A stretch of 64,000 bases of DNA from assembly GCA_035529375.1 (NCBI GenBank), contig DATKWU010000009.1:157848-221847 (forward strand), in the 5' to 3' direction. The position numbers were made by a program, and so were the translations under genes. Positions 2,301-46,854 of this stretch are shown here, piece by piece. Source of the DNA: Patescibacteria group bacterium (GTDB lineage: Bacteria > Patescibacteriota > Microgenomatia > PFEM01 > JAHIFH01). The notes beneath the pieces were generated by a model. It saw only the letters and a list, made by a program, of their open reading frames with translations, was not told where the DNA came from and did no database searches. Each line of letters opens with the position of its first letter. Within the stretch, counting starts at the first letter, position 1.

Positions 2301-2328
2301 TAGCCCAATTCTATTAAATTTCTCTCTT

Positions 2329-2355: not shown

Positions 2356-2359
2356 TTTC

Positions 2360-2670: not shown

Positions 2671-2707
2671 TTTTAGCATAAAAAAGCGAAAAAATCCAGT
2701 TTTTGAG

Positions 2708-4598: not shown

Positions 4599-4617
4599 TT
4601 ATGTTATATTTTAGCAA

Positions 4618-5302: not shown

Positions 5303-5338
5303 TAAAATAGTTGTTGAAAATAAAGGAGGTGATAAATA

Positions 5339-5722: not shown

Positions 5723-5731
5723 GGTAACAAC

Positions 5732-6790: not shown

Positions 6791-6876
6791 AATTCTTAAC
6801 TCTCGAAATCTCAATCATTTAAATACTTATCTGAGGGAAATTTTGGGTGAAAAAGGAAGGATTTTAATGAGTTGAC

Positions 6877-7269: not shown

Positions 7270-7440
7270 TCTATTACCTCCTCTTTAACTAAAAAATTGA
7301 TTTACTACTTATTATATTAGTTATAATAACTCCTTCTATATTTTTAATCAAGAATGGATAATAATTTTTTCAAAAAATCGAATCGGTTTCTTCATCATTC
7401 ATTTCACTCATCCGACAATCAAAAGTTTTAATAAAATATT

Positions 7441-8034
7441 TCATATAAAACAAAAATACATTATTATTAATCCTATTAAAATATGAGCAATTGTAATAAA
7501 AACAACATTTCTTGTTTTCATGAACCACCAGACTACATAAATACCAAAAAAGAAGGAACCTAAAACAAGCTGTGCTCCCCAAGCAAGGTGAAGTAAAGAA
7601 AATAAAGTTACACTTAAAATAAAAATGAGTTTTTTGTTTTTCAGAACCATTTCTAAGTGATTTATAAGAAATGGCCGATAGATGACTTCTTGAACAGGAG
7701 TATTAATTAAAGCATAAATTAACAAATATAACCAAGTTGGTATTTTTTCTAGGATAGTTAATGGTTCAGGCGGGCAGAAATAGGAAAGTTTAAATCTAAT
7801 AAACAACATCAAAAGTAAAAATGAAAACGGGATCATAGGAAGAAAAAAAAGATAATCTTGCTTAGTCGGCTTAAAGTAACCAAGCTGTTTAAAATTGTAT
7901 TTTGTAAAAGTCTGATAAAAAAGAAAAATTACAAAAATAGTGACAAAAAAATATCTGACCCACATTAAAGGCAAATCTTTTATAAGAAGAAAGGGAAAGA
8001 TTGAAAATAATAAAATAATCAAATATTTCTTCAT
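7441..8034 (-). CDS. CPBP family intramembrane metalloprotease (CAAX protease/Abi-like)
   Basis: Polytopic membrane protein with the ordered motifs QEVIYRPFL (EExxxR-like), FSLLHLAW (FxxxH) and a later TIAHILIG His motif. Confidence 0.55.
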   Translation of the reverse strand: MKKYLIILLFSIFPFLLIKDLPLMWVRYFFVTIFVIFLFYQTFTKYNFKQLGYFKPTKQDYLFFLPMIPFSFLLLMLFIRFKLSYFCPPEPLTILEKIPTWLYLLIYALINTPVQEVIYRPFLINHLEMVLKNKKLIFILSVTLFSLLHLAWGAQLVLGSFFFGIYVVWWFMKTRNVVFITIAHILIGLIIMYFCFI

Positions 8035-8091
8035 TGTGACAATTTTACCATTTTAAGGCTCTTTATTTTACTCTTGTGATAAAATCAAACC

Positions 8092-8487
8092 ATGTATCAA
8101 TTCAAAGTGGCTAAATTAGTTAGAGATAAAATCGCTCAAAGAATGATTGCTAATGAAAATGCTAGTTATCGAGTTTTGAATGATAAGGATTTTATTAGCC
8201 AATTAAAAAAGAAGATTCTTGAAGAAGCCAAAGAACTAATACCTGTCAAAGATAAGGAAAAAATTATTAAGGAAATTGCTGATCTTCAAGAGATTATTGA
8301 TACTTTAATCAAAACTTTAAAATCTTCAAAAAAGGAAATTAAAACAAAACAAAGAGAAGAAAATAAAAAATCAAGTTCTTTTAGAAAAAGGCTTTATATC
8401 GAAAAGATTGAATTAGAAAACAATCACCAATGGCTTGATTATTACCTCTCTCACCCTAAAAAATATCCTAAAATCAAAAACAAGTGA
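8092..8487 (+). CDS. All-alpha MazG-like NTP pyrophosphohydrolase (COG4997-like house-cleaning NTPase)
   Basis: N-terminal KLVRDKIAQRM...YRVL and an acidic helical EEAKELI...EIADLQEIIDTL region resemble the KLVRDKIPE-type MazG family. This is from memory. Confidence 0.45.
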   Translation: MYQFKVAKLVRDKIAQRMIANENASYRVLNDKDFISQLKKKILEEAKELIPVKDKEKIIKEIADLQEIIDTLIKTLKSSKKEIKTKQREENKKSSSFRKRLYIEKIELENNHQWLDYYLSHPKKYPKIKNK

Positions 8488-8537
8488 ATTCTTTTTTTTT
8501 AATTGCCTTTTAAAGCTAATTCTGATATTATAGGGTT

Positions 8538-9431
8538 ATGAGTCTTGAAGCTGTCAGACGACTTGACGAACAAGCGATTGAAGCATCTGAATATCTTAGA
8601 AAAAATAATAATGTGATTGAAGCAGCCGAGGTGGCTGCTTATGCCTTAGGTTTTCCTGAAAATCCTCTTGATTCAGAAGAGATCGCTCAGATTTGTGAAG
8701 ACCCAGAACAGCGAGCCATTCTTGGTTGTTTAATCAGACTTCACGTAGATTCTCTAAAAAGTGTTGCTAATGAAAGAATCTTTCCGCCAGGAATCTTAAA
8801 ACCACTTGCTGAAGCAACTGAGACAATCAATTCTGTTTACAGAGACGAAAATTTTGTGACAGCGATTAGTGATGTTAGTCAAGACCATCGAGGTAGAGAT
8901 CATAATTTTCTCCCGGAAATGCAAAGAGATGTTGCTAAAACCGCCAAAGTCGCTTCCGTCCTTTTTACTGGCGAAGAGGAAGCCTCTTTAATTGAATACG
9001 GAGAAAGACTCTTAGAAGAAACTTACAAGACTCTTCTTGATGGCCATTTAACTAAACCCTTGATTAAAATAGAACTAGAACTAAGTCGACTTAATCGGGG
9101 AGCTGAATTTGACCGAGAGGCTTTACTTGAAGAGTTTAATAAATTAATAGTCACCGACCAAGCAGGTAACCCTCACCGAGCGGCGACAGTGGCTTCGTGG
9201 TTAGTGGTCCTTGGCCAAAGGAATAATGATGAAGAAATTAAAGAAATTGGTTGGCGAGTCTTTCAAGCAATTGTTTCAAAACACCCAGAATGGCAGTTTA
9301 TGATTCCCTATGAAAGAAAAAAACAAGTTTTAGCCCAACAAAGAAAAAGATTAGTCACTATTCTTAAACTATTCACTACTTCGCCTCAAACAAGAAGGGA
9401 ATTAAGAAAAGAGCTAATCGAAGAAAAGTAA
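8538..9431 (+). CDS. Hypothetical protein
   Basis: 297 aa soluble ORF with no recognisable catalytic motif, co-directional with the MazG-like gene. Confidence 0.4.
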   Translation: MSLEAVRRLDEQAIEASEYLRKNNNVIEAAEVAAYALGFPENPLDSEEIAQICEDPEQRAILGCLIRLHVDSLKSVANERIFPPGILKPLAEATETINSVYRDENFVTAISDVSQDHRGRDHNFLPEMQRDVAKTAKVASVLFTGEEEASLIEYGERLLEETYKTLLDGHLTKPLIKIELELSRLNRGAEFDREALLEEFNKLIVTDQAGNPHRAATVASWLVVLGQRNNDEEIKEIGWRVFQAIVSKHPEWQFMIPYERKKQVLAQQRKRLVTILKLFTTSPQTRRELRKELIEEK

Positions 9432-9433
9432 AA

Positions 9434-10219
9434 CTAACTACTAGCGCTAGAATATTGAGTCAGAGCATAACGCCAAAGACGAAGTGACCCCCATAAAAAC
9501 AAACCGTTAACCAAAAAGGCAGCGACTACCCAAGGCCAAGAAATTAAGCCCATTAAGGCTTTAGTGGGAATTGTAAAAAGAAAAACCACGGGAATGGTAA
9601 AAGTTAAAACCCATCTAATTACTTCCCTATAAATATCAGTCGGAAAACGAGCCATACCGGTCATATCACGATAAATCCAAAGTAAATGGTCTACTTCCAT
9701 AGTAATGATACCAACGCTGCAAGCAAAAAGATGAAAAGAAAAACCCAAGATAAAACTATTAAACAAAAGAAGCATCGCTAAAAATAAGTGATTAAAACCA
9801 GCAAAGAGTTGTTGGGAAAAGATAAACCAAACAAAGAAAATCAAAAGAGGAATTAAAGTGATTAAATCCAAAATATCGGTGTAACCAAAAATTGGTCGGA
9901 AAAAAGAAGGCAGAGGTCTTAATAAATCTAAATCAAAATTACCTGAAGTAATCAGAGATCGGAAATGGTAAGCGCCTCGAAATAAAAACTGGGTAAAGAT
10001 ATCAACGATGTTAAAAATTAAAAAGAATAAAATTACTTGTTCGCGAGAATAACCGGCCAGAGTTTTTGTTTGGGATAAAACTACTAGCAAAAAGACAATC
10101 ATAAAAAGAAATCTCAAAACCTTACCAGTAATAAAGAAAAAACCTGACGATGAAGTCAGTAATTGCTCTTGGGCTGCATTTTTAGCCATTAAAAGCCAAA
10201 TTTTAGTCAAGCGTTTCAT
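9434..10219 (-). CDS. ABC-2 type transporter permease
   Basis: 261 aa protein with six predicted TM helices. It is the last gene of an ATPase-permease-permease operon. Confidence 0.55.
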   Translation of the reverse strand: MKRLTKIWLLMAKNAAQEQLLTSSSGFFFITGKVLRFLFMIVFLLVVLSQTKTLAGYSREQVILFFLIFNIVDIFTQFLFRGAYHFRSLITSGNFDLDLLRPLPSFFRPIFGYTDILDLITLIPLLIFFVWFIFSQQLFAGFNHLFLAMLLLFNSFILGFSFHLFACSVGIITMEVDHLLWIYRDMTGMARFPTDIYREVIRWVLTFTIPVVFLFTIPTKALMGLISWPWVVAAFLVNGLFLWGSLRLWRYALTQYSSASS

Positions 10220-15741: not shown

Positions 15742-15815
15742 CGGGGTGTGGCGCAGTTGGCTAGCGCGCACGCATGGGGTGCGTGAGGTCGCCGGTTCGA
15801 GCCCGGCCACCCCGA
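15742..15815 (+). tRNA. tRNA-Pro (anticodon GGG)
   Basis: Hand-folded cloverleaf: acceptor CGGGGUG/CACCCCG with the C1:G72 pair typical of bacterial tRNA-Pro, D-stem GCGC, anticodon stem CACGC/GCGUG, loop AUGGGGU (anticodon GGG), T-arm GCCGG-UUCGAGC-CCGGC, discriminator A. No CCA is encoded. Confidence 0.8.
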
Positions 15816-15820
15816 CAAAT

Positions 15821-35025: not shown

Positions 35026-35721
35026 TTATTTTTTAATCGCTTTTATTAATAGCCTGGTAGGAACAGAAGAATATTTCTTATATTCCGTCAAGTTTTTTTT
35101 GGCTTCTTCGCCCATAGGAATTGGCTCTTCAACAGTCATTAAGTCAAAACCAGAATTTATTGTTGTATTAATGTAATCTGAAATCTTTTTCGGATGATAT
35201 TCAATTTCTGTTCCCCAAGGCGTTTTTTCTATCTTTACTTTATTACTGAAGTATTCTGAATGATTAGTAACAAACCGAAGTGGGTGAATAGCAATAAGAA
35301 ATAGATATCCTCCTCTTACTAACCATCTGGAGATATTCTCCATTGTTTTCTTAAAATCCTTTTGACTTAAGTAATTAAAAGTCATATTACTTACGACAAG
35401 GTCTAAGCTTTCACTCCGTAGTTTTAAATTAGGCAAGTCTGCCTGTATAAGTTTCACATTAGGAAAAGACTTTCGGGTGATATTTAGCATATCGGAACTT
35501 ATGTCAGTTCCGATAAGATTTTTTTCCTGCACTCCCAAATCGAAAAGAAGTTTCATTGTTCTCCCAGCCCCACAACCAGCATCAAGAACCTGCATATCAC
35601 TTTTCAATATTGGTTTTAAGTGCTTTTCTATTGCTGGTTTTTCTATAAATTTCCAACTAAATGATTTCTCTGAAAACTGGACATACTTGGCGGCTTGGGC
35701 GCCTGAATACTTTATTTTCAT
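35026..35721 (-). CDS. Class I SAM-dependent methyltransferase
   Basis: Motif I VLDAGCGAGR and a DISSDM acidic motif II region. Length is 231 aa. Confidence 0.6.
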   Translation of the reverse strand: MKIKYSGAQAAKYVQFSEKSFSWKFIEKPAIEKHLKPILKSDMQVLDAGCGAGRTMKLLFDLGVQEKNLIGTDISSDMLNITRKSFPNVKLIQADLPNLKLRSESLDLVVSNMTFNYLSQKDFKKTMENISRWLVRGGYLFLIAIHPLRFVTNHSEYFSNKVKIEKTPWGTEIEYHPKKISDYINTTINSGFDLMTVEEPIPMGEEAKKNLTEYKKYSSVPTRLLIKAIKK

Positions 35722-35753
35722 GGGGCTAATTATACTTGAAAAACAAATTATAT

Positions 35754-36965
35754 TCAGTCAACAAAAGTCAGGGCTACACCCTTTTTTCCCATTCTTCCTG
35801 TTCTACCTATCCGATGGACATAATCACCATATGTTCTTGGTACGTCATAGTTGATGACATGAGTCACATTCTCTATGTCAATCCCTCTGGAAGCCACATC
35901 TGTCGCCAGTAAAATCTGAACCTCATTATTCTTTAACATATTCAAAGCCCGCAACCTCTGTCCCTGGCTCTTGTTACCATGAATCGCCGCAGCTTTGAAA
36001 CCTCTCTGGGTTAGATTTGCTTCAAGCTTGTTCACTCCCCATTTGGTTCGGCCAAAAACCAAAACCTTCCTAAATTCCTCTTTAATCAACAGCTGGTGAA
36101 GAATCTCAAGTTTGTTTTTGCCCCGAGTTCGAATTATGTCTTGATCAACATTTTGAGGAGTCACACCGGTTTTTACCGACACTGTTACTGGATCAACTAA
36201 AAAACTTTGCATAATCACCTCAGTTTCCTTTGGTATCGTTGCCGAGAAGAATAAAGATTGGCGACTCTTTGGTAAAAATGAAATAATATGTCGGATATCG
36301 TTGATAAATCCCATGTCCAACATACGATCAACTTCATCTAAGACCACGTTTCCGTATTGACTTAAGTTCAAAATCCGTCGTCCTTCTAGATCCTTTATCC
36401 TCCCAGGGGTTCCAATCACAAAATTTGGCTGACGTGACAACTCGCGTGCCTGGACATTCAGTGAGGCACCTCCAATACATAGTGTTGAGAAAACTCTCGT
36501 ACCCAAACTAAACAATTTAAATTCGTCTTGAATCTGTGAAGCTAGTTCGCGAGTAGGTGCCACGATTAAAACCTTTTGACTTCGATCTTTTGACACTTTT
36601 GTAATCAAAGGTAGTAAAAAAGCCGCTGTTTTTCCAGTTCCTGTGTTGGCAAGACCAACCAAGTCCCTTCCTTCCAATACGGGAAGTATTGCCTGGTCTT
36701 GAATTGCAGTCGGCTTGTCAAAACCACGCACTAGAATATTCTTTTTTACAGTTTCATCCAAAGGAAAGTCTGAAAAACTATTCGCTGGCACATATGGCAT
36801 TTCGACAACGTCAATAGCCTTTTTGACAAACATAAGTGGGTTCAAGGAAGCACCTTTGCTTCGGTATCTACCTTGACCTCCTGATCTGTTTGGTCGATAT
36901 TGACCAAAAGATCTATTATTCTGCCCGCGAAAACCACGGGAACGATCGCGCTTAAAATTTCTCAT
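35754..36965 (-). CDS. DEAD-box ATP-dependent RNA helicase with an arginine-rich N-terminal leader
   Basis: Q-motif and motif I GLANTGTGKTAAF, motif II VLDEVDRM, SAT, and motif VI HRIGRTGR. The 40-aa N-terminal leader MRNFKRDRSRGFRGQNNRSFGQYRPNRSGGQGRYRSKG is unusual. Confidence 0.85.
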   Translation of the reverse strand: MRNFKRDRSRGFRGQNNRSFGQYRPNRSGGQGRYRSKGASLNPLMFVKKAIDVVEMPYVPANSFSDFPLDETVKKNILVRGFDKPTAIQDQAILPVLEGRDLVGLANTGTGKTAAFLLPLITKVSKDRSQKVLIVAPTRELASQIQDEFKLFSLGTRVFSTLCIGGASLNVQARELSRQPNFVIGTPGRIKDLEGRRILNLSQYGNVVLDEVDRMLDMGFINDIRHIISFLPKSRQSLFFSATIPKETEVIMQSFLVDPVTVSVKTGVTPQNVDQDIIRTRGKNKLEILHQLLIKEEFRKVLVFGRTKWGVNKLEANLTQRGFKAAAIHGNKSQGQRLRALNMLKNNEVQILLATDVASRGIDIENVTHVINYDVPRTYGDYVHRIGRTGRMGKKGVALTFVD

Positions 36966-37135
36966 TTTTATTATATTAATGGCTTTAAAGGAGACGATTT
37001 GAAAAAAGGGGAAGATACGAATACCTAAACCAAATAAACCGACTCAAATCAGTATTAACTACTGATCAATATTTAAAGCTAACGGAAAGCATTGTAACAC
37101 ATCTAATTATCACTGTCAAACTATAGGATATTTGC

Positions 37136-37639
37136 TCACTTTTTCCCTTTAGTATCTTTTTTCTTGACTGGCGTTAACACTTCAATAGCTTTATCTGCTT
37201 TCTTGATTGTTGATTTTTTACTCTTTTTCGCCTTATTCTCTACCAACTTTGGTTTCTTCTCCCCGACCGACGATAGCAAATCAATAATTATATCAAGCCT
37301 GGTATTTAGAATTTCAATTTTTTCTACAAGTTGTGAAATGCTACGACTATTTATATCGCTTTGCGAAGGCCTTCTTGAATCTCTGTCGCCAAAACTTCTT
37401 CTGGGAGAACCTCTTCTGTCTCTTGATCTATCACTATCGCTTCCGCCTTTCTTCTCAAAACAGTCACTGCAATATACTGGCTTCTCACCGCTTGGCCTGA
37501 AGGGTACTTGACAATCCTTGCCACATTCATCGCAAACTGCATTGTGCAATAAAGGCCTTCTTGAATCTCTGTCGCCAAAACTTCTTCTGGGAGAACCTCT
37601 TCTGTCTCTTGATCTATCACCTGGATTAAAGTTTCTCAT
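37136..37639 (-). CDS. Arginine-rich (RSFG-repeat) protein with a CxxC...CxxC zinc ribbon and a Lys-rich coiled-coil tail
   Basis: MRNFNPGDRSRDRRGSPRRSFGDRDSRRP appears twice, flanking CDECGKDCQVPFRPSGEKPVYCSDCF. The N-terminus is homologous to the leader of the downstream DEAD-box helicase. Confidence 0.5.
   Translation of the reverse strand: MRNFNPGDRSRDRRGSPRRSFGDRDSRRPLLHNAVCDECGKDCQVPFRPSGEKPVYCSDCFEKKGGSDSDRSRDRRGSPRRSFGDRDSRRPSQSDINSRSISQLVEKIEILNTRLDIIIDLLSSVGEKKPKLVENKAKKSKKSTIKKADKAIEVLTPVKKKDTKGKK
37367..37620. repeat. Exact 69-bp direct repeat (copies at about 37367..37435 and 37552..37620) inside the arginine-rich gene
   Basis: aaggccttcttgaatctctgtcgccaaaacttcttctgggagaacctcttctgtctcttgatctatcac occurs twice, identically, about 116 bp apart. 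It encodes the duplicated DRSRDRRGSPRRSFGDRDSRRP peptide. Confidence 0.8.
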
Positions 37640-37883
37640 AAATGCTCCTACTAAATATTAAATATATTAGTGAGTATATGTATTATTAGTATAAATAGCA
37701 AGGAATACTGTAAAAAAATGCAAATAATTGATGAAATAGGAACGGTTTTTAAATAGTCTCGATACTCGTAATTTTGGTTATATTAAGTTGTAAACTGCTC
37801 AGGATAATAGAAAATGTTTGAACTGCTGTTCAGACTAAAGAATACGCTTATACTTCTTGTTAAATAAAAGCTTTTTAATAACC

Positions 37884-38930
37884 TTAATCTTTTAAGGCTT
37901 TATCAAAAAAATCTACTGAACGTTGGAGTGCTGTATCTAAGTTATTAGAAAGATTATGATTGTCTCCTTCATAAGTGTATAACTCTACGGGCTTGCCGGC
38001 ATTTCTCAACGCTTCATCTAATCTCTGACTAAACAGGAGTGGTACTTCATCATCTGCCGTCCCATGTTGAAGCTGTATCGGGCCGGAAATGTCTTTGACA
38101 AACGATATGGGTGAAATTGACTGCCAAAACTGGGGATTTTCTTCAAAGTTACCGTATTTATCAATCAGTTCCTGTCTTCCTGGCCGTCTTTCCGCCTGTT
38201 CTCTTTGCGAAGGCACCCAAGGCTGAGGATTATGAACTGGATGATGCCAGTTTATGGCTAAATCTTCATAAGAAGCCACTACTCCTGCCCAGATTTCTCC
38301 TGCCTTAATATCTTCTGTTACTACCATTGAACGCAAAACTATCATTCCTCCCATAGAATGACCCCACATGCCGATTCTTTCTGGGTCAGCATCTTTATAT
38401 TTTTTCATCGATGAAACAGCATTCAAAACATCTACTGTATAGGCTGATGAATAATAAGCGCCTTCTGGTTTGCCTTCTGAATTGCCGTGCCCCCTAAAAT
38501 CGGGTTTAAAAACAAGATATCCATTCCTGGAGAAAGCATCAATGTAAGCAACATATTTCTCGGTTGTTCTATACTGTTCTGGTTGAATGTAGCCGTGGTT
38601 AAAAACAATCACCGGCCAGCCGGTCTCAGGTTGTTCTCCTTGTGGTATCGTTAACAGAGCATAAATTTTTAAACCGTCTGATTTATAAGAAGCAATGTAT
38701 CTATTGTAATTTGAGCCGGGAGGCAGTGTCTGTTCGATAACAATATCGCTTCCGGGGTATTCCTGCTTCCTCATATATTCTATGGAGAGAGAGTTGGGTT
38801 CGTTTGTCAATCCGCCGAGGTTCTGCTCATTTATTTCTTTGGGAATACTTTTAAAGAAGCGGTTATAAGTGATAGTGCCGCCGAATATACATACAACAAT
38901 AATAGAAATAACAAGAGTACGTTTTCTCAT
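37884..38930 (-). CDS. Secreted or membrane-anchored alpha/beta hydrolase (prolyl-oligopeptidase/S9 or dienelactone-hydrolase-like)
   Basis: N-terminal TM/signal segment TLVISIIVVCIFGG and a nucleophile elbow GHSMGG, with later Asp/His residues (GTADDEV, GDNHNL). A TATAAT box lies 12 nt upstream with no SD. Confidence 0.6.
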   Translation of the reverse strand: MRKRTLVISIIVVCIFGGTITYNRFFKSIPKEINEQNLGGLTNEPNSLSIEYMRKQEYPGSDIVIEQTLPPGSNYNRYIASYKSDGLKIYALLTIPQGEQPETGWPVIVFNHGYIQPEQYRTTEKYVAYIDAFSRNGYLVFKPDFRGHGNSEGKPEGAYYSSAYTVDVLNAVSSMKKYKDADPERIGMWGHSMGGMIVLRSMVVTEDIKAGEIWAGVVASYEDLAINWHHPVHNPQPWVPSQREQAERRPGRQELIDKYGNFEENPQFWQSISPISFVKDISGPIQLQHGTADDEVPLLFSQRLDEALRNAGKPVELYTYEGDNHNLSNNLDTALQRSVDFFDKALKD

Positions 38931-39076
38931 TTTGCACAAAAAAAATTATTATACCAGGTTTTTCTGACAAAATCATAAAGAAAATTACTTCTGGTTTTTG
39001 AAGATTTTAAGTTTGTGCAGGAATTGAGGGAGGAAATAAAAAAACTAACCTCTCAAGAGGCATTAATAGGCTGTTG

Positions 39077-39745
39077 TTAATTACTCAGCCTATTTCCCCT
39101 CCCTGGATGGGCCGGAACCTGTGCGCCAGCAAACCAATCATTGATTCCGTTATATAAAGATTGGGCAATCTGCTGTTGCCGGTTTCCAGTACCATCAGTT
39201 AATAAACCACATTCAGTCATATTTGATATAAAAGCTACTTCCTGAATAGTGGCGGGCATTTCCGCTTTAAGAATTACTCCAGAGGCAAACTGCAATAATC
39301 CTCCATTGCCAATTCCCAAGCTCGGATATAGTTGATTATGGATTGTCGAGGCTAAATCAATGTCTTTTTTCCATTTAGCGTACAATCCTTGAGTGTAATT
39401 CAATTCATGGTCGGTTGAACCGTTGAAATGAATGGAAACCAGAATTTCACCATCTGTATTGTTGGCAAGAGTGTATCTATCTCTATTGGTCATATAGACA
39501 TCGCTTTCTCTAGTCATGTAAACTGTTACATCGGGCTCAAGCAGTGCTTTTAGCCTTTTTGCTACATCTAAATTTGCATCAGCCTCTGATAAACCAGGAC
39601 ACTCCATTGAACCAGGCTCATCGCCGCCGTGTCCAGCGTCAATGACTATTTTGTGGCCAGTTGCCTCTGCCGTATTGGAAACAAACACTAATGACGCAAC
39701 CCACAATAACAAAACCAAAACAAGAAATACTATTTTTTTATTCAT
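39077..39745 (-). CDS. N-acetylmuramoyl-L-alanine amidase (Amidase_3 family) with a signal peptide
   Basis: KIVIDAGHGGDEPG zinc-site motif and SIHFNG. The start is at the ATG (MNKKIV...) downstream of the AAAGGGGGTGA SD. Confidence 0.7.
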   Translation of the reverse strand: MNKKIVFLVLVLLLWVASLVFVSNTAEATGHKIVIDAGHGGDEPGSMECPGLSEADANLDVAKRLKALLEPDVTVYMTRESDVYMTNRDRYTLANNTDGEILVSIHFNGSTDHELNYTQGLYAKWKKDIDLASTIHNQLYPSLGIGNGGLLQFASGVILKAEMPATIQEVAFISNMTECGLLTDGTGNRQQQIAQSLYNGINDWFAGAQVPAHPGRGNRLSN

Positions 39746-39775
39746 CCATTTCACCCCCTTTCAAACACTAGTTTT

Positions 39776-40378
39776 TTATCTGTAAAACAGTCTGATAAGC
39801 CAGCCGAAAATACTTCCGACCTGCTCTTCTGCCTGAATCTGCTCTTCTAAACTCGTATTCTGCTCAACCAGAGCCTGAATCGCTTCCTCAAGTTGGGTTT
39901 CATCAGCCTGGTTAGCTACTTGGTTTTGCAGTTGAGTTAACTGCCGGATTCTAAGCTGATTTTGTTCCATTTGTTGCTTGAGGTTTTTGATGGCTCCGTA
40001 GTCAGGACCAAACAACTTTTTCATTAAACCTGACCTGGATTCCAATTTGTTCAATTGAGTCTGAGTCTGTGTTTGAGTCTGGACCTGTTCCTGGGCAATA
40101 TTTCTTACCTGACTGCCGACTTCCTCATTTAAACCTTCCATGTCCATTAACTGCTCCATGTGCTGTGTGGCCACCTGCAATTGGGTTTCTTCTCCTTGAT
40201 TTTGAGTTTGGACCTGATTTTGATTCTGAACTTGGTTGCCTTGGGGAGTTGGCGAACCGCTAAGGTGGGTAGATGGGTCCTGGACTTTATTTTGCTGCTG
40301 GACTCCTTGAGCTGATACAAAAGAGGGAACAAGTATTAACGCTAACGCGATTATTGATGTTGCAATCAATTTCTTCAA
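39776..40378 (-). CDS. Secreted Gln-rich coiled-coil protein with a C-terminal hydrophobic tail
   Basis: Signal peptide KKLIATSIIALALILVPSFVSA, QTQTQTQ tracts and a C-terminal SIFGWLIRLFYR. A probable TTG start lies 8 nt after AAGGAGGTG. Confidence 0.45.
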   Translation of the reverse strand: MKKLIATSIIALALILVPSFVSAQGVQQQNKVQDPSTHLSGSPTPQGNQVQNQNQVQTQNQGEETQLQVATQHMEQLMDMEGLNEEVGSQVRNIAQEQVQTQTQTQTQLNKLESRSGLMKKLFGPDYGAIKNLKQQMEQNQLRIRQLTQLQNQVANQADETQLEEAIQALVEQNTSLEEQIQAEEQVGSIFGWLIRLFYR

Positions 40379-40607
40379 TTTTCTCACCTCCTTTTCCAGT
40401 AATTTTACTATATTTTACCTCAAGTTAAAGAAATTTATAAGTTTTAACTCTACTCTACAAAGTTAAAATATTAAAAACCTCTCATTATCTATAATTCGGC
40501 CAGTGAATTTAGCCAGACAGTCTTTCAAGGCTTTAAATAGGCGCGGGAATTGAGAAAGGAAATTGATAGGGTTAAAAACCCTACCACAATACCCGCAATT
40601 ATCTAAT

Positions 40608-41312
40608 TCACTCGTTATAAAGCTCTTGAATTCCTAGCCAGTCTCCGGTTCCTAAGGTTTGCTTATCAATCTCTCCGTAACCGCTATATCCATACATGGT
40701 CAACGCCGTGCTTGGCGGCATGTATAAGTCACTTAATCCATTGTGCCCGAATTCATGAGTGGCAATGTTTTGCAGGTCCATTTTGCCGCTTTCACCAGCC
40801 AAACTCCAAGTGAAACCTGTACTAAATACAACATCAGATTCTACTATAATTTTTAATGCTGGATTATACCAAAATTGATTTACTGCAATAATTCCTGATC
40901 CTAGACTTCCCCATGTTACTGTATTAGTATAATCTCTGTTTTCATTAAAACTTACGCTATCATCTAACTCTGGTGTTGCAAAAAGCTCAAATGAAGTTTC
41001 AATATCCCATGTTTCTAAACTTTCGCTTAGAGTAGCTATCACTTCATTTTCATTTAAGTAGCTTCCATAGGGGTTCACTTCATAAGTCATGGTGTCGGCC
41101 CACCTTATTCCACCGGCAATGAATTTGAATTTATCTACCGTGTCATCCCAAACTGGTTTGGAATTTTTAGCAGATTTTGCGTAGTGAATAAAGGTTATTT
41201 TTTCTAAATCCGGCGGAGTGGTTTCTGGTTTTCCTGGCTGTTCTTTTGCCAATACCGGAAAAGCTAAAGCCAAAAACAGCAAACAACTAGCTCCAATTAA
41301 AAATTTCCTCAT
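40608..41312 (-). CDS. Secreted zinc metalloprotease, metzincin-like with a snapalysin-type HExxHxxGxxD site
   Basis: Signal peptide, then HEFGHNGLSDLY and a Met-turn TALTMYGY. The start is at MRKFLIG after the AAAGGGGGTGA SD. Confidence 0.6.
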   Translation of the reverse strand: MRKFLIGASCLLFLALAFPVLAKEQPGKPETTPPDLEKITFIHYAKSAKNSKPVWDDTVDKFKFIAGGIRWADTMTYEVNPYGSYLNENEVIATLSESLETWDIETSFELFATPELDDSVSFNENRDYTNTVTWGSLGSGIIAVNQFWYNPALKIIVESDVVFSTGFTWSLAGESGKMDLQNIATHEFGHNGLSDLYMPPSTALTMYGYSGYGEIDKQTLGTGDWLGIQELYNE

Positions 41313-41388
41313 ATATTTGTTCACCCCTTTCTAAACACTAAAATTGCTAAATAATCTTACGCGAAAATCGCAAAAGAATATCTATAAA

Positions 41389-41592
41389 TTAGTTCAGAGG
41401 TCCCCAAGGTCCAGCCGGGGCTTCATCCTCCATGTCAAATCGACAACGAGCCTCAGGGCCCCAAGGACCGGACCGATGTTCCGTGCAGTCGCCATCTTCA
41501 GGCTGGCTGGCCGCCATAACGCTCACGCTGAGTACCGACATGATTACTGTCATCAACAGCCCCACGGCCACAATGAAAGTTAATTTCTTCAT
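41389..41592 (-). CDS. Small secreted Cys-containing peptide precursor (67 aa) with GPWGP repeats
   Basis: MKKLTFIVAVGLLMTVIMSVLSVSVMA | ASQPEDGDCTEHRSGPWGPEARCRFDMEDEAPAGPWGPLN. It has the same AAAGGGGGTGA SD as its neighbours, and its GC content is markedly higher than the flanking DNA. Confidence 0.45.
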   Translation of the reverse strand: MKKLTFIVAVGLLMTVIMSVLSVSVMAASQPEDGDCTEHRSGPWGPEARCRFDMEDEAPAGPWGPLN

Positions 41593-41623
41593 TTTATTCA
41601 CCCCCTTTCAATTTCAAATTTTC

Positions 41624-41650
41624 AATAAAAAATCCGCATAAAAGCGGATT
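41624..41650 (-). terminator. Rho-independent terminator downstream of the 2H-phosphoesterase gene
   Basis: The minus strand reads AAUCCGC-UUUUAU-GCGGAUU followed by UUUUUAUUG. It lies only about 25 nt upstream of the peptide gene's SD. Confidence 0.5.
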
Positions 41651-41932
41651 AATAAATTTTCTTTGAATTGGGCAGGCAAGTGACTTGCCTCATTAGTCAG
41701 ACGATAACAAGTTTTTCACGAATAGTCAACCAGCGGGTCAATCGAGATGTAAATAGTAAAAATGAAGCCCATCTAGTTTTAGCCTCATAATTCCCTTACA
41801 ACTAGGGGATTTTATTAGAGGCGATTTAAGGCTAGTTTCTGCCTGAAGTTTTAAACCAAAGCTAACTTGGGTATATTAAATTCCAACTAGCTCACCCGAT
41901 GGGACGATTTTCGAACCTTTATAAAATATTAC

Positions 41933-42487
41933 TTAATAGAAAGTTATTTCTCGAAGCATACCCCATGACTTTGCGTCTGTTGCTTTTTTAAATACAAATA
42001 TTGACTCAACCTTAAAGGAAAACACATTGTTAAAATTTTTTAATTCCTTTTTAATCTTAGGAAGTGAGTTGTTTGGTATTTTCTCCGCAATAGTCATATG
42101 AGGATTAAACTTGTCAGGAGTTGGACTATATTCACTGTAAACACTTTTTGTATAACCTTCTAAGAACTTAACAGTTTTTACTAGTAAGTTAATAATATAT
42201 TTAGACGATTTAGAATCAGGTTTTACAAACGCAACATTATTTCTACCTTTAAAATAATCAATTGAATTAAGAGTAACTTCACCACATTTCGTTTTAGAAA
42301 AGTCGTTTACAAGTTTTGTAAGAAATCGTCTTTCCGTAATACCTTTTAAAAAGAATGGTGGATATACGGTAATGTGTGAGGGAATAGTGTAACTTGTGTA
42401 TTTTGCATACAATCTGCGATATTTATCCATTGTTTTAATAACTTCTTTTGGAGGGAGAATGACTATTAGGTAAGAGTAAGAGTTCAT
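41933..42487 (-). CDS. 2H phosphoesterase superfamily protein (LigT/cyclic-phosphodiesterase-like)
   Basis: Two H-x-T-x motifs (PSHITVYP and NPHMTIAE) with appropriate spacing. The gene is AT-rich and has a leaderless-type promoter. Confidence 0.5.
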   Translation of the reverse strand: MNSYSYLIVILPPKEVIKTMDKYRRLYAKYTSYTIPSHITVYPPFFLKGITERRFLTKLVNDFSKTKCGEVTLNSIDYFKGRNNVAFVKPDSKSSKYIINLLVKTVKFLEGYTKSVYSEYSPTPDKFNPHMTIAEKIPNNSLPKIKKELKNFNNVFSFKVESIFVFKKATDAKSWGMLREITFY

Positions 42488-42637
42488 ACGTGAAGTATAT
42501 CATCTGAGGCTAAAGGTCGTGGCTCGAGGATCTTAACGCTAATATAACCAGTCAATTCGTGCGTATTTTCAAGGTATTTGAGGATTCCAAGTTTATCAGT
42601 CAACTACAGGAAGAAATGAATAGAGTGATACCAGCAG

Positions 42638-43042
42638 TCAATCTTTCAAGTGGTACGATTCGTTCATCCATTCAATGATTTCATCGTCTATTTCTTGCTT
42701 GCTGCTTATATCAAAACAATTCTTATATACCATGCTGGACATTGGTACACATACTTTCAACCTTGGGCTATCAAGTTTTCTATCTAATGCAAACCTTATC
42801 TCTAACCTATCATTTTTAGGTAACGCTGCCAAAAAGTCATATTTACCAAACAAATGAACACAGCAAGGAATAGAAATTATTTTGCATTTACCAATCTTGC
42901 TGTCAATTTGTTCTACTAAAAAGTCAAACAGCTTTTTTGCTTGCTTCTTACCTACAAAATGCTTTTGCAAAGGAATCTTTTTACAACTATGAGGTTGGTT
43001 GGCGCCTCTGAAAATTCGTTTGCATTTAGGACACGTCCACAT
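42638..43042 (-). CDS. Hypothetical protein with an N-terminal C2HC zinc finger
   Basis: MWTCPKCKRIFRGANQPHSC. A TACAAT box ends 6 nt before the ATG. Confidence 0.4.
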   Translation of the reverse strand: MWTCPKCKRIFRGANQPHSCKKIPLQKHFVGKKQAKKLFDFLVEQIDSKIGKCKIISIPCCVHLFGKYDFLAALPKNDRLEIRFALDRKLDSPRLKVCVPMSSMVYKNCFDISSKQEIDDEIIEWMNESYHLKD

Positions 43043-43260
43043 GGTTCAATTGTACTAGTTTTATCAGGAAATGATAAATGGAAGGTTATATTAAAGACTA
43101 TTCGACTAATTTAATTTCATGGCTAAATTTCTTTATGCTCCCCAAACCAAAAGATATTATATCCAAGGTTTTAGGCACAATTCTTACTGCTTTTGAGGAT
43201 GTAAACCAGATGGAAGTGATTAAAGTGAGGTGGGAGGAGATAAAGAAGTTACAGCCACAA

Positions 43261-43545
43261 CTAGCGACTTCCTAGTTTTTTTATCCTCTCAGCTAATAAA
43301 CCAGTTAATGAACCTATCCCAAACCAGAAAATTCCAACAAAAAGAACATTAAAAATAAAATTGTCAGAAAATGCTCGGCAACAGGTTTCAAAAATCTCTT
43401 CAAAAATGATTGAGGGAATAACCATCCAAAATAAAATACTTATTTTACCTCCAGTAATGAGTCCGAAGAGTAACCCCAAAACTATCAAGACTGGAAAAAT
43501 CATAACTCCGGAAACTAACCAATAAGGTAAGTTTTTAAGTTTCAT
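43261..43545 (-). CDS. Small membrane protein
   Basis: 94 aa with three predicted TM helices and a leaderless-type promoter (TGATATAAT 4 nt before the ATG). Confidence 0.4.
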   Translation of the reverse strand: MKLKNLPYWLVSGVMIFPVLIVLGLLFGLITGGKISILFWMVIPSIIFEEIFETCCRAFSDNFIFNVLFVGIFWFGIGSLTGLLAERIKKLGSR

Positions 43546-43648
43546 TATTTTAATTATATCAGAAGTTCGAAGGGCAACACTTGGTATATTAAAAACGAGA
43601 CTAAATTTCTAAGCCCTCCCTTGCGGACGATGTTCTAACTAGCCTATT

Positions 43649-44050
43649 TTAGTAGATTTTTTTTCGAAGATGTGTTAAATAGGCAGAAAAAATTGTTGTT
43701 AAAAGTTGCAAGAAAGGAGAAATAACAACCATCAAGACTAACCATCCCCAAAAACTAGCAACTGGAGTAAAAAGTATTAGAGGTTCACCAAAATTAGCAA
43801 TATCTTTTGTAGAGTCTAAACAATATGGCAACATCGCTAATAACCAAATAACAGCAAGGATTAAAAAGGTAAATAACGAGGCGAAGATTGAATATCTAAA
43901 AACCTTCCGCTCATCAATAAAATTACGAGCAAGAAAATATCCCAGAGGAAAACCTAAAAGTATATTAAAAAACGGGACTCCCATGCCCATGCCTATACAA
44001 ATAATGTCAATTGCCAGATAACCTAAAATCCATTTTTTCTTTATTTTCAT
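43649..44050 (-). CDS. Small membrane protein
   Basis: 133 aa with four predicted TM helices. It has a classical SD (AAGGAGG) and a TATAAT box after the upstream terminator. Confidence 0.45.
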   Translation of the reverse strand: MKIKKKWILGYLAIDIICIGMGMGVPFFNILLGFPLGYFLARNFIDERKVFRYSIFASLFTFLILAVIWLLAMLPYCLDSTKDIANFGEPLILFTPVASFWGWLVLMVVISPFLQLLTTIFSAYLTHLRKKIY

Positions 44051-44140
44051 TTTTCCTCCTTATGCCAATATTTTACATCAATCTTATAAAAGACTAAACC
44101 ATGTCCAGGGTGGGGTGGTAGATGGAAATTATTATAACCA

Positions 44141-44183
44141 ACAAAAAAGGACGTAGTATCGGAATAATTTGATACCTGCGTCC
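44141..44183 (-). terminator. Rho-independent terminator after the 172-aa hypothetical gene
   Basis: The minus strand reads GGACGCAGGUAUC...GAUACUACGUCC followed by UUUUUUGUUGG. Confidence 0.5.
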
Positions 44184-44258
44184 AACCGAGCTCCCCCTAA
44201 AGGACCTATTCTGCAACCAAGAACTAGAATTTGATTTGAGCCTACAGGAAGTTAAAAC

Positions 44259-44777
44259 TTACTTTCTAGTCCAACTCGCTGATTGACTCATTGTTACGCT
44301 CAATCTATCTCCATATAGACACATCTCATCTATCACAACTCGATACTCCAGTGCACTTTCTATCATTGATTTAAGATAAATTGCTACAGGCAGAGTTCCA
44401 TCGCTTTCTTGTCCGAAAGCTTCTAATACTCGTATTCGTGTGTCCTTATCTGTATGGATAACTACACTTTCTTCGCTAGAAAGAACTCCTTGAGAATCAT
44501 TCTTCACTCTACCCTCTATTACCAGGCCGACCCTTTCTTTGGGGTTATCGAGGTCTGAAACTGTATATGGTGTAAGGAGGTATAAACCGTCTTGTGTAAC
44601 TTCGGCCACAAAATTAGACAGAAGAACCGGATGGTCCTCAGAGTCATCAATCTCAGCCTGCCTTTTGAATAACTCGTGTAGTTCATCCATGGTTAGAGAA
44701 TATTCACCTCTGCTTTTTTCCGCCACAACCTCTATTAAAGCAATGTGCACTGGTCTTAACTCTGGTCTCTCAGGCAT
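44259..44777 (-). CDS. Hypothetical protein
   Basis: 172 aa acidic soluble protein with higher GC than its neighbours and an extended -10 (TGATATACT) ending 8 nt before the ATG. Confidence 0.4.
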   Translation of the reverse strand: MPERPELRPVHIALIEVVAEKSRGEYSLTMDELHELFKRQAEIDDSEDHPVLLSNFVAEVTQDGLYLLTPYTVSDLDNPKERVGLVIEGRVKNDSQGVLSSEESVVIHTDKDTRIRVLEAFGQESDGTLPVAIYLKSMIESALEYRVVIDEMCLYGDRLSVTMSQSASWTRK

Positions 44778-44879
44778 GTCCGAAGTATATCAAATCTGAA
44801 GCTAAAATCCTAGCTCCCCACGGTATACAGGCTTCGAGACTGGCTAACAGACAACTTTTTAGATATTCCGGCTCTAAGA

Positions 44880-45272
44880 CTAAGCGTTGCTATCTAAGAA
44901 TTGCTTAAGCGCTTGCAGGTCTTTTTTATCGGGGTCGTAATAATATGAGGTTATACCGAGCGATTGAGCGCTTTTTGTTGCTTCTGGACTGTGTTCAAAA
45001 TAGACAACATCTTCCGGTTGGAGGCTAAAGTGTTCTAGCATTTTCCTAAAATACTCGGGGTCAGTCTTTTCCGGATTGTGCTTTAGTGTAAAAACCTCAT
45101 AGGGCATTTTGTCCAAGCCAAACTTCTTAAATTGCTTATCGTTCGCGCCGGTTAAGATTATTTTTTGATTTGGAAAGCCCTCAAGAAGATCGTGCATTTC
45201 CTTAAAAATCTTAAAGGCATCCTTACCCTTAACCACAAAAGCGCCAATTGCGTCTACTAAAATAGTTTTCAT
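44880..45272 (-). CDS. Hypothetical protein, possibly a degenerate HAD-like fold
   Basis: ILVDAIGAF (a weak DxDG-like motif I) and a VVYFEHSPEATKSAQSLGI motif III/IV-like stretch. The assignment is tentative. Confidence 0.3.
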   Translation of the reverse strand: MKTILVDAIGAFVVKGKDAFKIFKEMHDLLEGFPNQKIILTGANDKQFKKFGLDKMPYEVFTLKHNPEKTDPEYFRKMLEHFSLQPEDVVYFEHSPEATKSAQSLGITSYYYDPDKKDLQALKQFLDSNA

Positions 45273-45347
45273 AATTGAAGTATAACAAAAAGCGTTTTAG
45301 GGTTACATTCTATGCTCCGCGAACAGGACTCGAACTAATATTAAAAT

Positions 45348-45656
45348 TTACATTTTGATTTCAATATCCACTCCTGAAGGAAGTTCAAGATGCATTAAGG
45401 AGTCAATTGTTTTACTGGTTGGTTCAAGAATATCAATCAATCTTTTATGAGTGAGGATTTGGAAGTGTTCTCTGGCGTCTTTGTCAGTGTGGGGACTGGT
45501 GGTAACCGTAATCAGTTTTCGGTGGGTTGGTAGAGGCACAGGACCCACTACTTTGGCACCACTAGCTAAGGCTGTTTCTAAGATTTTTTCGCAACTCTCA
45601 TCGATGACTCGATGATCATATGCTTTTAAACGTACCCTTATTCTGCCCTTTGGCAT
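45348..45656 (-). CDS. rpsJ: 30S ribosomal protein S10
   Basis: [25 protein letters not shown] is the S10 N-terminus. The start is taken at 45656 (the ORF track extends further), directly after the tuf stop. Confidence 0.85.
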
Positions 45657-45663
45657 TCTCTCC

Positions 45664-46854
45664 TTAGGCGATAATTTTACTAATTGCTCCCGCCCCAACA
45701 GTGTGACCACCCTCACGGATAGCAAAACGGAAGCCTTCTTCCATAGCGACCGGCTGAATAAGCTTGACTGTCATCTTGGCATTATCACCAGGCATGACCA
45801 TTTCTACTCCCTTAGAGAGAGTGACTTCACCGGTTACATCTGTAGTTCGAACATAAAATTGAGGTTTGTAACCACTGAAGAAAGGGGTATGACGACCACC
45901 TTCTTCTTTGGTAAGGATATAAACTTCTGCCTCAAATTCTTGATGAGGCTTAATGGTACCAGGTTTTGCTAAAGCTTGACCTCGTTCCACGTCTTTCTTT
46001 TCGACTCCTCGAAGAAGAATACCAACGTTATCACCAGCTTCACCTTCATCAAGAGTTTTACGGAACATCTCAACACCAGTGACCGTTGTCTTTTGGGTGT
46101 CGCGAAGACCGATGATTTCGATTTCATCACCAACTTTAATTTTACCTCGTTCGATTCTTCCAGTGACAACAGTCCCTCGACCTTTAATAGAGAAAACATC
46201 CTCAAGAGGCATCAAGAAGGGTTTGTCTAAAGGCCGTTTAGGTGTCGGAATATTTTCATCAACCGCCTTCATCAGTTCAAGAACGGCTTTTTCTGCTTCA
46301 GCATCGCCCTCAAGGGCCTTAGCGGCGGAGCCTCGAATAATCGCAATTTTGTCACCAGGGAATTTATATTTAGTTAAAAGTTCCCTAATTTCCATTTCAA
46401 CCAGATCAAGCATCTCTTTGTCCTTAACCAAATCGACTTTATTTAGGAAAACGATCATGGCTGGCACATCAACCTGACGAGCCAAGAGAATATGCTCTCG
46501 AGTCTGAGGCATTGGACCATCATCGGCGGCGACAACAAGAATGGCACCATCCATTTGAGCAGCACCGGTAATCATGTTTTTAATAAAGTCTTTGTGTCCG
46601 GGACAGTCAATGTGAGCATAGTGACGCTTTTCCGTCTCATACTCAATGTGGGAAATAGAAATTGTCAAACCCCGTTCTTTTTCTTCAGGAGCGTTATCAA
46701 TCTGATCAAAGGGAATATATTTTGTCCCCGTATTTGCTTTCTCTAAAACCTTGGTAATTGCTGAGGTTAAAGTCGTCTTACCATGGTCAACGTGACCAAT
46801 GGTCCCAATATTAACGTGAGGTTTTTCTCTTTTAAATTTTGTTTTTTCAGCCAC
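45664..46854 (-). CDS. tuf: Elongation factor Tu
   Basis: [24 protein letters not shown]... is full-length EF-Tu. Confidence 0.95.

Follow-up and report, generated by a model that had tools for sequence, protein, structure and literature searches.

Five consecutive genes on the minus strand of the window, by which we mean the whole 64-kb stretch of DNA analysed here, encode a small peptide, a metzincin protease, a glutamine- and asparagine-rich (Q-rich) protein, an Amidase_3 enzyme and an alpha/beta hydrolase, and are transcribed in that order. The source contig, which belongs to a Patescibacteria metagenome-assembled genome, was found in several samples. Comparison with related loci and contigs, denoted here by L-numbers, suggests that the cluster is probably a recently assembled accessory set of Sec-exported, envelope-active proteins in a Microgenomates-type genome. 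A preliminary description had presented the genes as one co-regulated, modularly assembled cassette with a distinctive shared ribosome-binding leader. The row of exported-enzyme genes is real, with five open reading frames (ORFs) confirmed on the minus strand, and modular assembly is borne out by the comparison with L107 and L110, by the apparent exchange of a DUF5661 gene for the amidase gene, and by a peptide-gene swap between L104 and L007. However, the single co-regulated cassette gives way to three predicted transcription units with unrelated promoter regions, which appear to have been brought together recently.

The cluster genes, together with the gene that precedes them, are as follows.

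42487-41933, minus strand: LigT-like gene preceding the cluster, followed by ~340 nt of non-coding sequence before the peptide gene
41592-41389, minus strand: small secreted peptide gene, 67 aa (ORF and N-terminus inspection)
41312-40608, minus strand: matrix metalloproteinase (MMP)-like metzincin gene, 234 aa, secreted (Pfam, family profile, fold search)
40378-39776, minus strand: Q/N-rich helical secreted protein gene with a TTG start (ORF and family search)
39745-39077, minus strand: Amidase_3 gene, secreted, single-domain, CwlV/CwlD type (Pfam, alignment to 1jwq)
38930-37884, minus strand: alpha/beta hydrolase gene of S9/DLH/esterase type, 348 aa, membrane-anchored or secreted (Pfam, N-terminus)

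By sequence inspection, four of the proteins have n-, h- and c-regions followed by AxA-type cleavage sites, as in classical signal peptides. Exported-type N-termini were found for the row of four signal-peptide genes described earlier, although that of the hydrolase more closely resembles an uncleaved signal anchor. The small cysteine-containing peptide had been said to follow the protease, but its gene lies upstream of the protease gene on the coding strand.

Mosaic origin of the cluster

The evidence for recent assembly comes from the following segments, among them two copies of a 44-nt repeat (motif-44) that is treated further below.

41888-41939, minus strand: decayed tRNA-Asn remnant with a CTATTAA anticodon-loop-like sequence, T-arm, acceptor 3' end and a 5-nt insertion (alignment)
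41778-41887, minus strand: element X, conserved and non-coding, ~110 nt, 82% identical to L107 6825-6937
40445-41777, minus strand: inserted cassette of 1333 nt (leader, peptide, metzincin and 3' module), absent from L107 and L110
40379-40444, minus strand: upstream region of the Q-rich gene, native to the locus and holding the promoter; aligns colinearly with L107 (79%) and L110 (88.5%)
40520-40563, minus strand: motif-44 copy 2, a degenerate repeat whose opposite-strand frame has a stop (sequence comparison)
38994-39037, minus strand: motif-44 copy 1, native, with its distal end at 38993, where synteny ends (sequence comparison)

The gene order in L107 is rpoD, tRNA-Asn, element X, the Q-rich gene (81% identical protein), a DUF5661 gene and a 51-nt stretch that is 90% identical to motif-44 copy 1. 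Element X, which contains the hairpin TCCCCTAGTTGTAAGGGA, lies there between the tRNA-Asn gene and the Q-rich gene promoter and is contiguous with that promoter, whereas the window separates the two by 1333 nt. This cassette is bounded by an imperfect direct repeat of 12 nt with 3 mismatches (TGAGGCTAAAAC / TAGAGTTAAAAC), for which L107 has a single TGAAGCTAAAC. L110 is also without the cassette and has a tRNA 3' end before its Q-rich gene. The tRNA-Asn remnant of the window overlaps the stop codon of the LigT-like gene and aligns with the 3' halves of the intact tRNA-Asn genes found upstream of the homologous clusters in L107, L101 and L110; neither ARAGORN nor Rfam called it. A piece resembling element X, caggcagaaactagccttaaatcg, was also seen in L101 near position 2250. 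Judging from these alignments, the Q-rich gene and its promoter are native to the locus and the 1.33-kb cassette was inserted upstream of them. One point tells against this order of events, namely that insertion rather than deletion rests on two relatives, L107 and L110.

The other end of the cluster is also variable. Because a DUF5661 gene follows the Q-rich gene in L107, L108 and L112, we conclude from the sequences that the lineage comprising the window and L110 exchanged it for the amidase gene. A conserved Q-rich-amidase operon was considered and rejected: only L110 has this pair, the gene following in L107, L108 and L112 is that for DUF5661, and L109 shows an extracytoplasmic function (ECF) sigma factor context. 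Synteny with L107 and L110 ends exactly at 38993, and neither carries the hydrolase gene here. A swap of a further kind distinguishes L104 from L007. The two share 99% identity over the amidase 3' end plus leader, and again over the metzincin region, but between the leader SD and the upstream region of the metzincin gene L104 has a gene for a 65-aa peptide and L007 one for a 614-aa protein.

Exported proteins and their possible roles

The Amidase_3 call made from the sequence passed the profile check against Pfam (E 5.6e-35, 121.4 bits, curated cut-off 27). The protein aligns end to end in one stretch with CwlV (PDB 1jwq), and the His-Glu-His zinc ligands and catalytic Glu are present in IDAGHGG, SEAD, SIHFN and IQEVAF, aligned with the CwlV residues. 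Because the E. coli-type AmiA, AmiB and AmiC match it only in two separate stretches, the amidase is without their inserted regulatory helix. The same catalytic domain, zinc ligands and Glu characterise CwlV and CwlD (PDB 1jwq, 4rn7) from end to end; in contrast to these enzymes, the window protein consists of a signal peptide and the catalytic domain, with no wall-binding repeats in the Pfam scan, and scores under every NCBIfam equivalog cut-off. It would be expected to cleave MurNAc-L-Ala bonds.

The protease had been described as a metzincin with a snapalysin-type site. Its metzincin nature was upheld by Pfam (Peptidase_M10, E 1.1e-9, 38.8 bits, cut-off 24), by the family profile, which matches MMP-8 (E 9e-9), and by Foldseek, whose best matches were MMP-12, MMP-9, MMP-13 and karilysin (probability 1.0; the structure model is confident for residues ~65-190 only). 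The snapalysin-type site did not hold: the zinc motif HEFGHNGLSD reads HExxHxGxxD, one residue shorter than the spacing of snapalysin and the MMPs, so that HExxHxxGxxD is not met although the Asp is present, and no Peptidase_M7 match was obtained at E<=0.01. The standard matrixin motif HExxHxxGxxH is not present either. The shorter spacing is invariant among 25 aligned family members, as are HE[FL]GHNGLxD and LTMY. The latter, a Met-turn candidate, lies 10 residues past the zinc motif, where the predicted local distance difference test (pLDDT) score of the model is below 50; AlphaFold support for the Asp as a zinc ligand was dropped for the low confidence of the model in that region. No cysteine-switch prodomain was found, the sole Cys lying within the signal peptide. 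The protein shares fold, profile, the HExxH helix and the candidate Met-turn LTMY with the matrixins (M10A, including MMPs and karilysin) and an Asp as putative third ligand with snapalysin (M7), but differs from these enzymes in the shortened spacing, in having no cysteine-switch prodomain and in the missing M7 match. The family occurs mainly in Patescibacteria, DPANN archaea and methanogens.

The hydrolase had been called S9-like, which was partly upheld: its C-terminal part matches Peptidase_S9 in Pfam (69 bits), and a nucleophile elbow, GHSMG (GxSxG), stands at residue 190 of an alpha/beta fold. However, Pfam gives many other alpha/beta-hydrolase families alongside Peptidase_S9 (E 5e-19), the DLH, esterase and Abhydrolase families fitting as well as Peptidase_S9, and there is no N-terminal beta-propeller, only ~85 residues preceding the hydrolase fold. 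On its profile matches it is best named an S9/DLH-type alpha/beta hydrolase, for which an S9-like peptidase is not better supported than an esterase. The metzincin and the hydrolase might act on released peptides or on envelope proteins.

Neither the Q-rich protein nor the 67-aa peptide matched a Pfam family. At E<=1e-3 the large, uncharacterised Q-rich family numbers 1279 cluster representatives, conserved over ~140 C-terminal aa that end in SLFGWLxKLF. At L109 5872-7603, the gene for a member of this family comes immediately after two others, for an ECF-type sigma factor and a 186-aa protein, a context which hints that the family can belong to a unit of the envelope-stress type.

The mature part of the peptide measures ~40 aa and contains two Cys as well as two GPWGP motifs. 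A word-indexed search for homologs returned only the query, and a motif scan of all fetched loci added only L104; the two share the pattern C-x8-9-GP[WF]G...C-x-F-[DE]-M-x-D-x-AP-x-GP[WF]GP. L104 also keeps the order leader, peptide, metzincin. By analogy, the two-Cys peptide may be a secreted partner of the metzincin, acting as inhibitor, trans-prodomain or substrate. Known counterparts are the serralysin-inhibitor gene pairs (AprA/AprI, PrtA/Inh) and trans-supplied prodomains. The arrangement resembles these in that a small exported protein is encoded beside an M10-clan protease, apparently co-transcribed, in the same order in two lineages. It differs from them in that the peptide is only ~40 aa when mature, unrelated in sequence, encoded upstream rather than downstream, and has one known homolog.

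An Amidase_3 gene stands beside the metzincin gene in L012, L013 and L027, as found among 80 genomes with a metzincin relative; archaeal loci showed no such neighbour. L009, found via protein look-up, has the pair too, so that the two genes are adjacent or nearly so in four other Patescibacteria genomes: L007/L012, L013/L098, L009 and L027. These neighbourhoods make a functional link between amidase and metzincin plausible.

Several shared sequences were noted at these loci. An N-terminus MLNKIKSA(S/P)GGKK is common to amidase, metzincin and the 614-aa protein (L013 1907-1960 and 2979-3030; L007 3883-3940; protein P0002). Its DNA holds a hairpin, TCYGCC-nnn-GGCRGA, in which the copies differ by a compensatory change; a signal-peptide motif specific to the lineage and an RNA element are both conceivable. 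At L009 (5930-6000, 6770-6848, 7540-7590) and L027 (~2310-2366), metzincin, amidase and a neighbour each follow a terminator and (G)TAGAATAAAnATGAAnGGTCnA, a different upstream motif shared by the same gene pair in two other Patescibacteria. A structured region (ttcaagcttagccatYcaccccRgg ... cctggggtggtgg) follows the metzincin stop in L007 (6740-6830) and L013 (3745-3860) and is absent from the window.

Patescibacteria and DPANN archaea are known for episymbiosis, and it is possible, if rather unlikely, that the cluster is an offensive toolkit, its three enzymes (amidase, metzincin, hydrolase) being exported by an episymbiont to breach the wall or surface layer of a host cell. All products appear to be exported, the amidase lacks the inserted regulatory helix of AmiA/B/C and aligns with CwlV in one stretch, the metzincin family has its main concentration in these same two groups, and the genes are accessory and vary between strains. 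However, nowhere does sequence separate an autolysin from an attack enzyme, Pfam detected no cell-wall-binding or targeting domains, and murein is missing from many of the archaea that carry the metzincin family, so that the protease needs no amidase partner. For the accessory set of envelope-active proteins that we favour, it counts as a weakness that the enzyme roles and the peptide role follow from family membership and synteny.

Transcription units and the leader module

Intrinsic terminators were predicted at 41650-41631, 40586-40564 and 39061-39048, and the elements of the leader upstream of the peptide gene were located as follows.

41701-41729, minus strand: sigma-70-type promoter, TTGACT-17 nt-TATCGT, with TG before the -10 (promoter scan; conserved in 10 copies on 7 contigs)
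41674-41693, minus strand: predicted transcript start ATG and 5' hairpin P1, AGGCAAG-TCA-CTTGCCT (leader alignment)
41625-41650, minus strand: leader intrinsic terminator, AATCCGC-TTTTAT-GCGGATT plus T-run (prediction; pairing in 10 copies)
40564-40586, minus strand: intrinsic terminator after the metzincin gene (terminator prediction)
39048-39061, minus strand: intrinsic terminator after the amidase gene (terminator prediction)

Because terminators and separate promoter regions delimit them, and because no terminator was predicted in the peptide-metzincin gap (76 nt) or the Q-rich-amidase gap (30 nt), the cluster is read as three transcription units, namely leader-peptide-metzincin, Q-rich-amidase and hydrolase. 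Unrelated sequences lie upstream of them, respectively a conserved leader, a stretch conserved in L107 and L110, and a TGgTATAAT box without a Shine-Dalgarno (SD) site.

The leader is a module of ~150 nt that comprises promoter, 5' hairpin, intrinsic terminator and SD; the motif first noticed before the peptide gene is its 3' end. The predicted transcript begins with an ATG 7 nt past the promoter -10, directly followed by the 7-bp hairpin P1, and this ATG opens a 14-codon frame, MRQVTCLPNSKKIY, with its stop at the foot of the terminator. Ten copies were found in 7 contigs (the window and six others), with the same anatomy and spacings in L007/L012, L104, L013/L098, L095, L101 and L102 and with nhmmer E values of 1e-12 to 1e-43 among copies. 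Each is followed by GAAAGGnGGTGA and a gene start. In the terminator helix, 96% of cells pair across the ten copies, with U-A to C-G exchanges at one pair; overall, 89% of leader helix cells are paired, versus 36-52% when the 3' partners are slid. The 5' hairpin occurs in three sequence versions (AGGCAAG/CTTGCCT, GACAAA/TTTGTC, GGGA/TCCC). The genes behind the module mostly encode uncharacterised secreted proteins, one of them camelysin-like, and two encode proteins without a signal peptide. L102 (10.9 kb) alone holds four copies (1838-9522, minus strand), one of which precedes a gene for a camelysin/TasA-like protein and then a SipW-type signal peptidase-like ORF that had no Pfam hit at E<=0.01. 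Neither the leader nor the 280-nt spacer matched an Rfam family, the search giving only sub-threshold noise.

With only 38 nt from the leader terminator (41631) to the peptide ATG, no promoter fits between the two. The promoter lies upstream of the terminator, none lies between terminator and gene, and the GC-rich hairpin with its U-run is kept by compensatory change, as in attenuators. We infer that the leader is an attenuator or antiterminator leader: transcription of the peptide and metzincin genes would have to read through the terminator, and attenuation or antitermination would control their expression. The read-through may depend on a ribosome that translates the leaderless mini-ORF from the invariant 5' ATG; alternatively, the 5' hairpin may have a put-like role. 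Speaking against the first of these mechanisms, the peptides encoded by the mini-ORFs show no conservation, and a check for selection on an open mini-ORF found frames 0 and 2 equally open. Ribosome-mediated attenuation is for this reason only one option. Every copy has the ATG at its predicted transcript start, while the mini-ORFs range from 9 to 29 codons with stops from 16 nt before the hairpin to just past the T-run. No conserved alternative antiterminator fold was found.

Leader-terminator attenuators (pyrBI, trp) and cis-acting antiterminator RNAs (HK022 put and the eps-associated RNA, EAR) are known, and share with the module a promoter and a short structured leader with a terminator directly before the SD, and a tiny ORF ending at or within the terminator. 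In contrast to these systems, the mini-ORF would be leaderless, starting at the first base of the transcript, with no conserved peptide or regulatory codons; no conserved antiterminator hairpin was found; and the module is multicopy, fronts unrelated secreted-protein genes and has no Rfam match.

The main rival of the attenuator reading is a free-standing small RNA (sRNA) gene of ~70-95 nt, behind which the downstream genes would be expressed by leak-through or from unseen promoters. The consensus promoter, 5' hairpin, single-stranded linker and strong intrinsic terminator are typical of trans-acting sRNAs, and multiple copies in L102 would suit such a gene. We nevertheless regard it as unlikely, given that in each of the ten copies an SD and a start codon lie within ~25-45 nt downstream of the terminator on the same strand, with no room for a promoter, and that no preferred target pairing was found within the window.

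If the attenuator reading is extended, Microgenomates-type Patescibacteria could possess a new class of portable expression module, represented by the ~150-nt unit. Such a module would insulate the downstream gene from upstream transcription. Its own transcripts would pass only if a 70S ribosome ran from the leaderless mini-ORF into the terminator, or if the 5' hairpin rendered the polymerase resistant to termination. Jointly with the 3' repeat, the module would also supply homology for exchanging genes of secreted proteins among strains, and the peptide would be a trans prodomain or inhibitor of the prodomain-less metzincin. This extended proposal is speculative, and we think it has a low chance of being correct as a whole.

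The 3' repeat, the shared Shine-Dalgarno motif and the setting of the cluster

The earlier observation that amidase and protease genes are each followed by a terminator and a shared 3' motif is correct as to both copies: GGAATTGAGRRAGGAAAT occurs at 39020-39037 and 40546-40563, against 0.09 occurrences expected in the window. The similarity extends to 44 nt at 75% identity, each copy lying after a predicted intrinsic terminator. However, the motif belongs to a dispersed repeat rather than to the terminator. Only two copies exist in the window, and related ones follow the DUF5661 gene in L107 and three different genes in L101. An S8 subtilase gene in L101 has a 3' flank with 83% identity to the 70 nt past the metzincin stop (40612-40543), which include the terminator there. 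On the other strand, motif-44 reads as VF(E/K)(D/N)F(R/K)FVQ(E/K)LREEI, with 5, 2 and 9 variable sites at codon positions 1, 2 and 3. No match was found in viral contigs, and opposite-strand ORFs covering the motif had no Pfam identity. A candidate third copy at 42617-42574 was rejected, since it agrees at 20 of 33 conserved positions, no better than random sites. The codon pattern suggests that motif-44 is probably a dispersed relic of an opposite-strand ORF, which would now mark recombination sites and perhaps promote recombination.

The cassettes might instead have been moved by a dedicated site-specific system, integron-like or belonging to a tRNA-Asn element, with motif-44 or the 12-nt repeat as its site. 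The clean 1333-nt insertion with its imperfect direct repeat would fit such a system, as would synteny breaks that, in two comparisons, coincide exactly with the distal end of motif-44, the occurrence of motif-44 after different genes in L101 and L107, the tRNA-Asn gene or remnant adjoining the clusters, and the L104/L007 swap that starts right past the leader. However, no integrase or recombinase family was found among the genes within 10 kb on either side, motif-44 has no attC-like inverted repeat and its substitutions resemble decayed opposite-strand coding, viral contigs hold no exact match to it, and the flanking repeat has 3 mismatches in 12. We therefore consider a dedicated system quite improbable. 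Its integron/attC form was rejected for want of an integrase within this distance and of attC R''/R' cores in motif-44 and the terminator regions. The tRNA-linked genomic islands and integron cassette arrays that are known likewise place accessory genes by a tRNA gene or remnant, with gene-sized swaps and junction repeats; the cluster differs from them in having neither integrase nor attC anatomy and in that each cassette has its own promoter or SD.

The leader motif on which the preliminary description had built its regulon is present at three genes, but its core is best read as an SD rather than a distinctive element. The sites are as follows.

41598-41608, minus strand: peptide SD AAAGGGGGTGA, the 3' end of the leader module (motif scan, leader alignment)
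41321-41330, minus strand: metzincin SD AAAGGGGTGA, with one G fewer, preceded by TAGTGTTT (sequence comparison)
40384-40394, minus strand: Q-rich SD, canonical AAAGGAGGTGA (motif scan)
39751-39761, minus strand: amidase SD AAAGGGGGTGA, 30 nt past the Q-rich stop with no terminator between, not conserved in L110

The exact AAAGGGGGTGA occurs at the amidase and peptide sites and nowhere else in the 64 kb. Allowing one mismatch gives 7 matches against 1.9 expected, and four of the others are the canonical AAAGGAGGTGA, including that of the Q-rich gene. The canonical sequence is the full complement of the usual 16S ribosomal RNA (rRNA) 3' end, and the A-to-G change in the core puts a G·U pair in place of its A-U pair; the site is complementary to the generic anti-SD UCACCUCCUUU with this one G·U pair. 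The distance from GGTGA to the start codon is 5 nt for amidase, peptide and Q-rich genes and 8 nt for the metzincin gene. The generic form of the site is AAAGGnGGTGA, homologous leaders carrying GGAGG, GGTGG, GGCGG or GGGGG; as a genome-wide pattern, the G-variant sites are written AAAGGNGGTGA. L110 is the closest relative, with a colinear Q-rich-amidase block at 88.5% DNA identity, and the leader of its amidase ortholog reads cttgtatttgaaaaagggtgaaatagATG, that is, gaaaaagggtgaa with ttgtattt, and has neither GGGGG nor TAGTGTTT. Because the central base varies in relatives and the L110 ortholog has neither sequence, the motif marks no regulon. On these comparisons the shared AAAGGGGGTGA is best read as a strong SD site, and as a co-regulation signal it fails also in that the promoters are unrelated.

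In the regulon model, a translational regulator or sRNA would bind (G)TGTTT(A)GAAAGGGGGTGAA as the dedicated cis-regulatory leader of an amidase-protease-peptide lytic regulon. Several observations lean that way and weigh against a plain SD site. Only 64 kb was searched, and within it all three G-variant SDs (GTGTTTGAAAGGGGGTGAA-type leaders), including the exact GGGGG variant, fall in the cluster. The 8-mer TAGTGTTT, shared just upstream by the amidase and metzincin copies, is unaccounted for by ribosome binding. At the 4 positions that differ from L110, the amidase leader of the window equals its metzincin leader, and is thereby closer to it than to its own ortholog, which suggests a gene conversion tract or common descent of the two leaders. 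Finally, the 16S rRNA gene lies outside the window, and the anti-SD is assumed to be the generic one. However, the core perfectly complements this anti-SD, homologous leaders vary freely at the central base, and TGTTT is absent from the peptide copy. Conservation in orthologs beyond the need of ribosome binding, which a dedicated leader should show, was found neither in the L110 amidase leader nor in the homologous leaders. The linker of the leader RNA shows no preferred pairing with the three sites: as an anti-SD sRNA on the amidase, metzincin and peptide sites, its duplex energies rank 9, 10 and 23 of 78 start regions. The regulon model is thus very unlikely. The in-frame GTG within each SD was ruled out as the true start, as it would have no SD before it.

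The strong SD interpretation also has precedent in the known extended SD sites of Bacillus type, including the cryIIIA STAB-SD stabiliser, which have the same 11-nt 16S complement (AAAGGAGGTGA) 5-8 nt before the start; the canonical form is found elsewhere in the window. Two cluster sites differ from these by a central G (G·U pair) and one by a lost G.

Strong SD sites are a minority in the window. A TAnnnT box (often TGnTAnnnT) 5-8 nt before the ATG, with no SD, was seen at 16 of 76 long ORFs against a background of 9% (for example at the starts 42487, 43545, 44777, 45272, 51160, 8092, 8538, 60032 and 463), which suggests that leaderless mRNAs are widespread in this genome. A literature search on leaderless translation or lytic enzymes in Patescibacteria found nothing in the collection searched.

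The cluster lies within a block of ~10.5 kb and 15 accessory genes (window 35026-45725; L001 4021-15772) between rpsJ (S10) and rplC (L3), two genes that are normally adjacent. Besides the five cluster genes, the block contains genes for hypothetical proteins, DUF5655, the LigT-like protein, zf_Tbcl_2, a DEAD helicase and a methyltransferase. The zf_Tbcl_2 gene (37639-37136) has a perfect 69-nt direct repeat (37366-37434 / 37552-37620) that doubles an Arg/Ser/Asp-rich segment. The rpsG-fusA interval holds a sulfotransferase gene and a hypothetical gene. The sole Rfam and ARAGORN calls in the window were a class A RNase P RNA (2366-2659, minus strand) and a tRNA-Pro(GGG) (15742-15816, plus strand).

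As first framed, the cluster would be an ordinary one, of exported hydrolases with a strong ribosome-binding site. Read as a mosaic, it provides an example of how streamlined Patescibacteria may vary their exported proteins, with cassettes swapped between non-coding 5' and 3' modules beside a tRNA-Asn gene, here within a normally unbroken row of ribosomal genes. To our knowledge, gene regulation in these uncultured bacteria is almost wholly unexplored, and the conserved multicopy leader with its built-in terminator, which is not in Rfam and lies at the edge of the interval first flagged, is the newest and most interesting item. The recurrent pairing of an amidase with a prodomain-less metzincin, together with the two-Cys peptide, offers testable hypotheses on wall remodelling or host attack.

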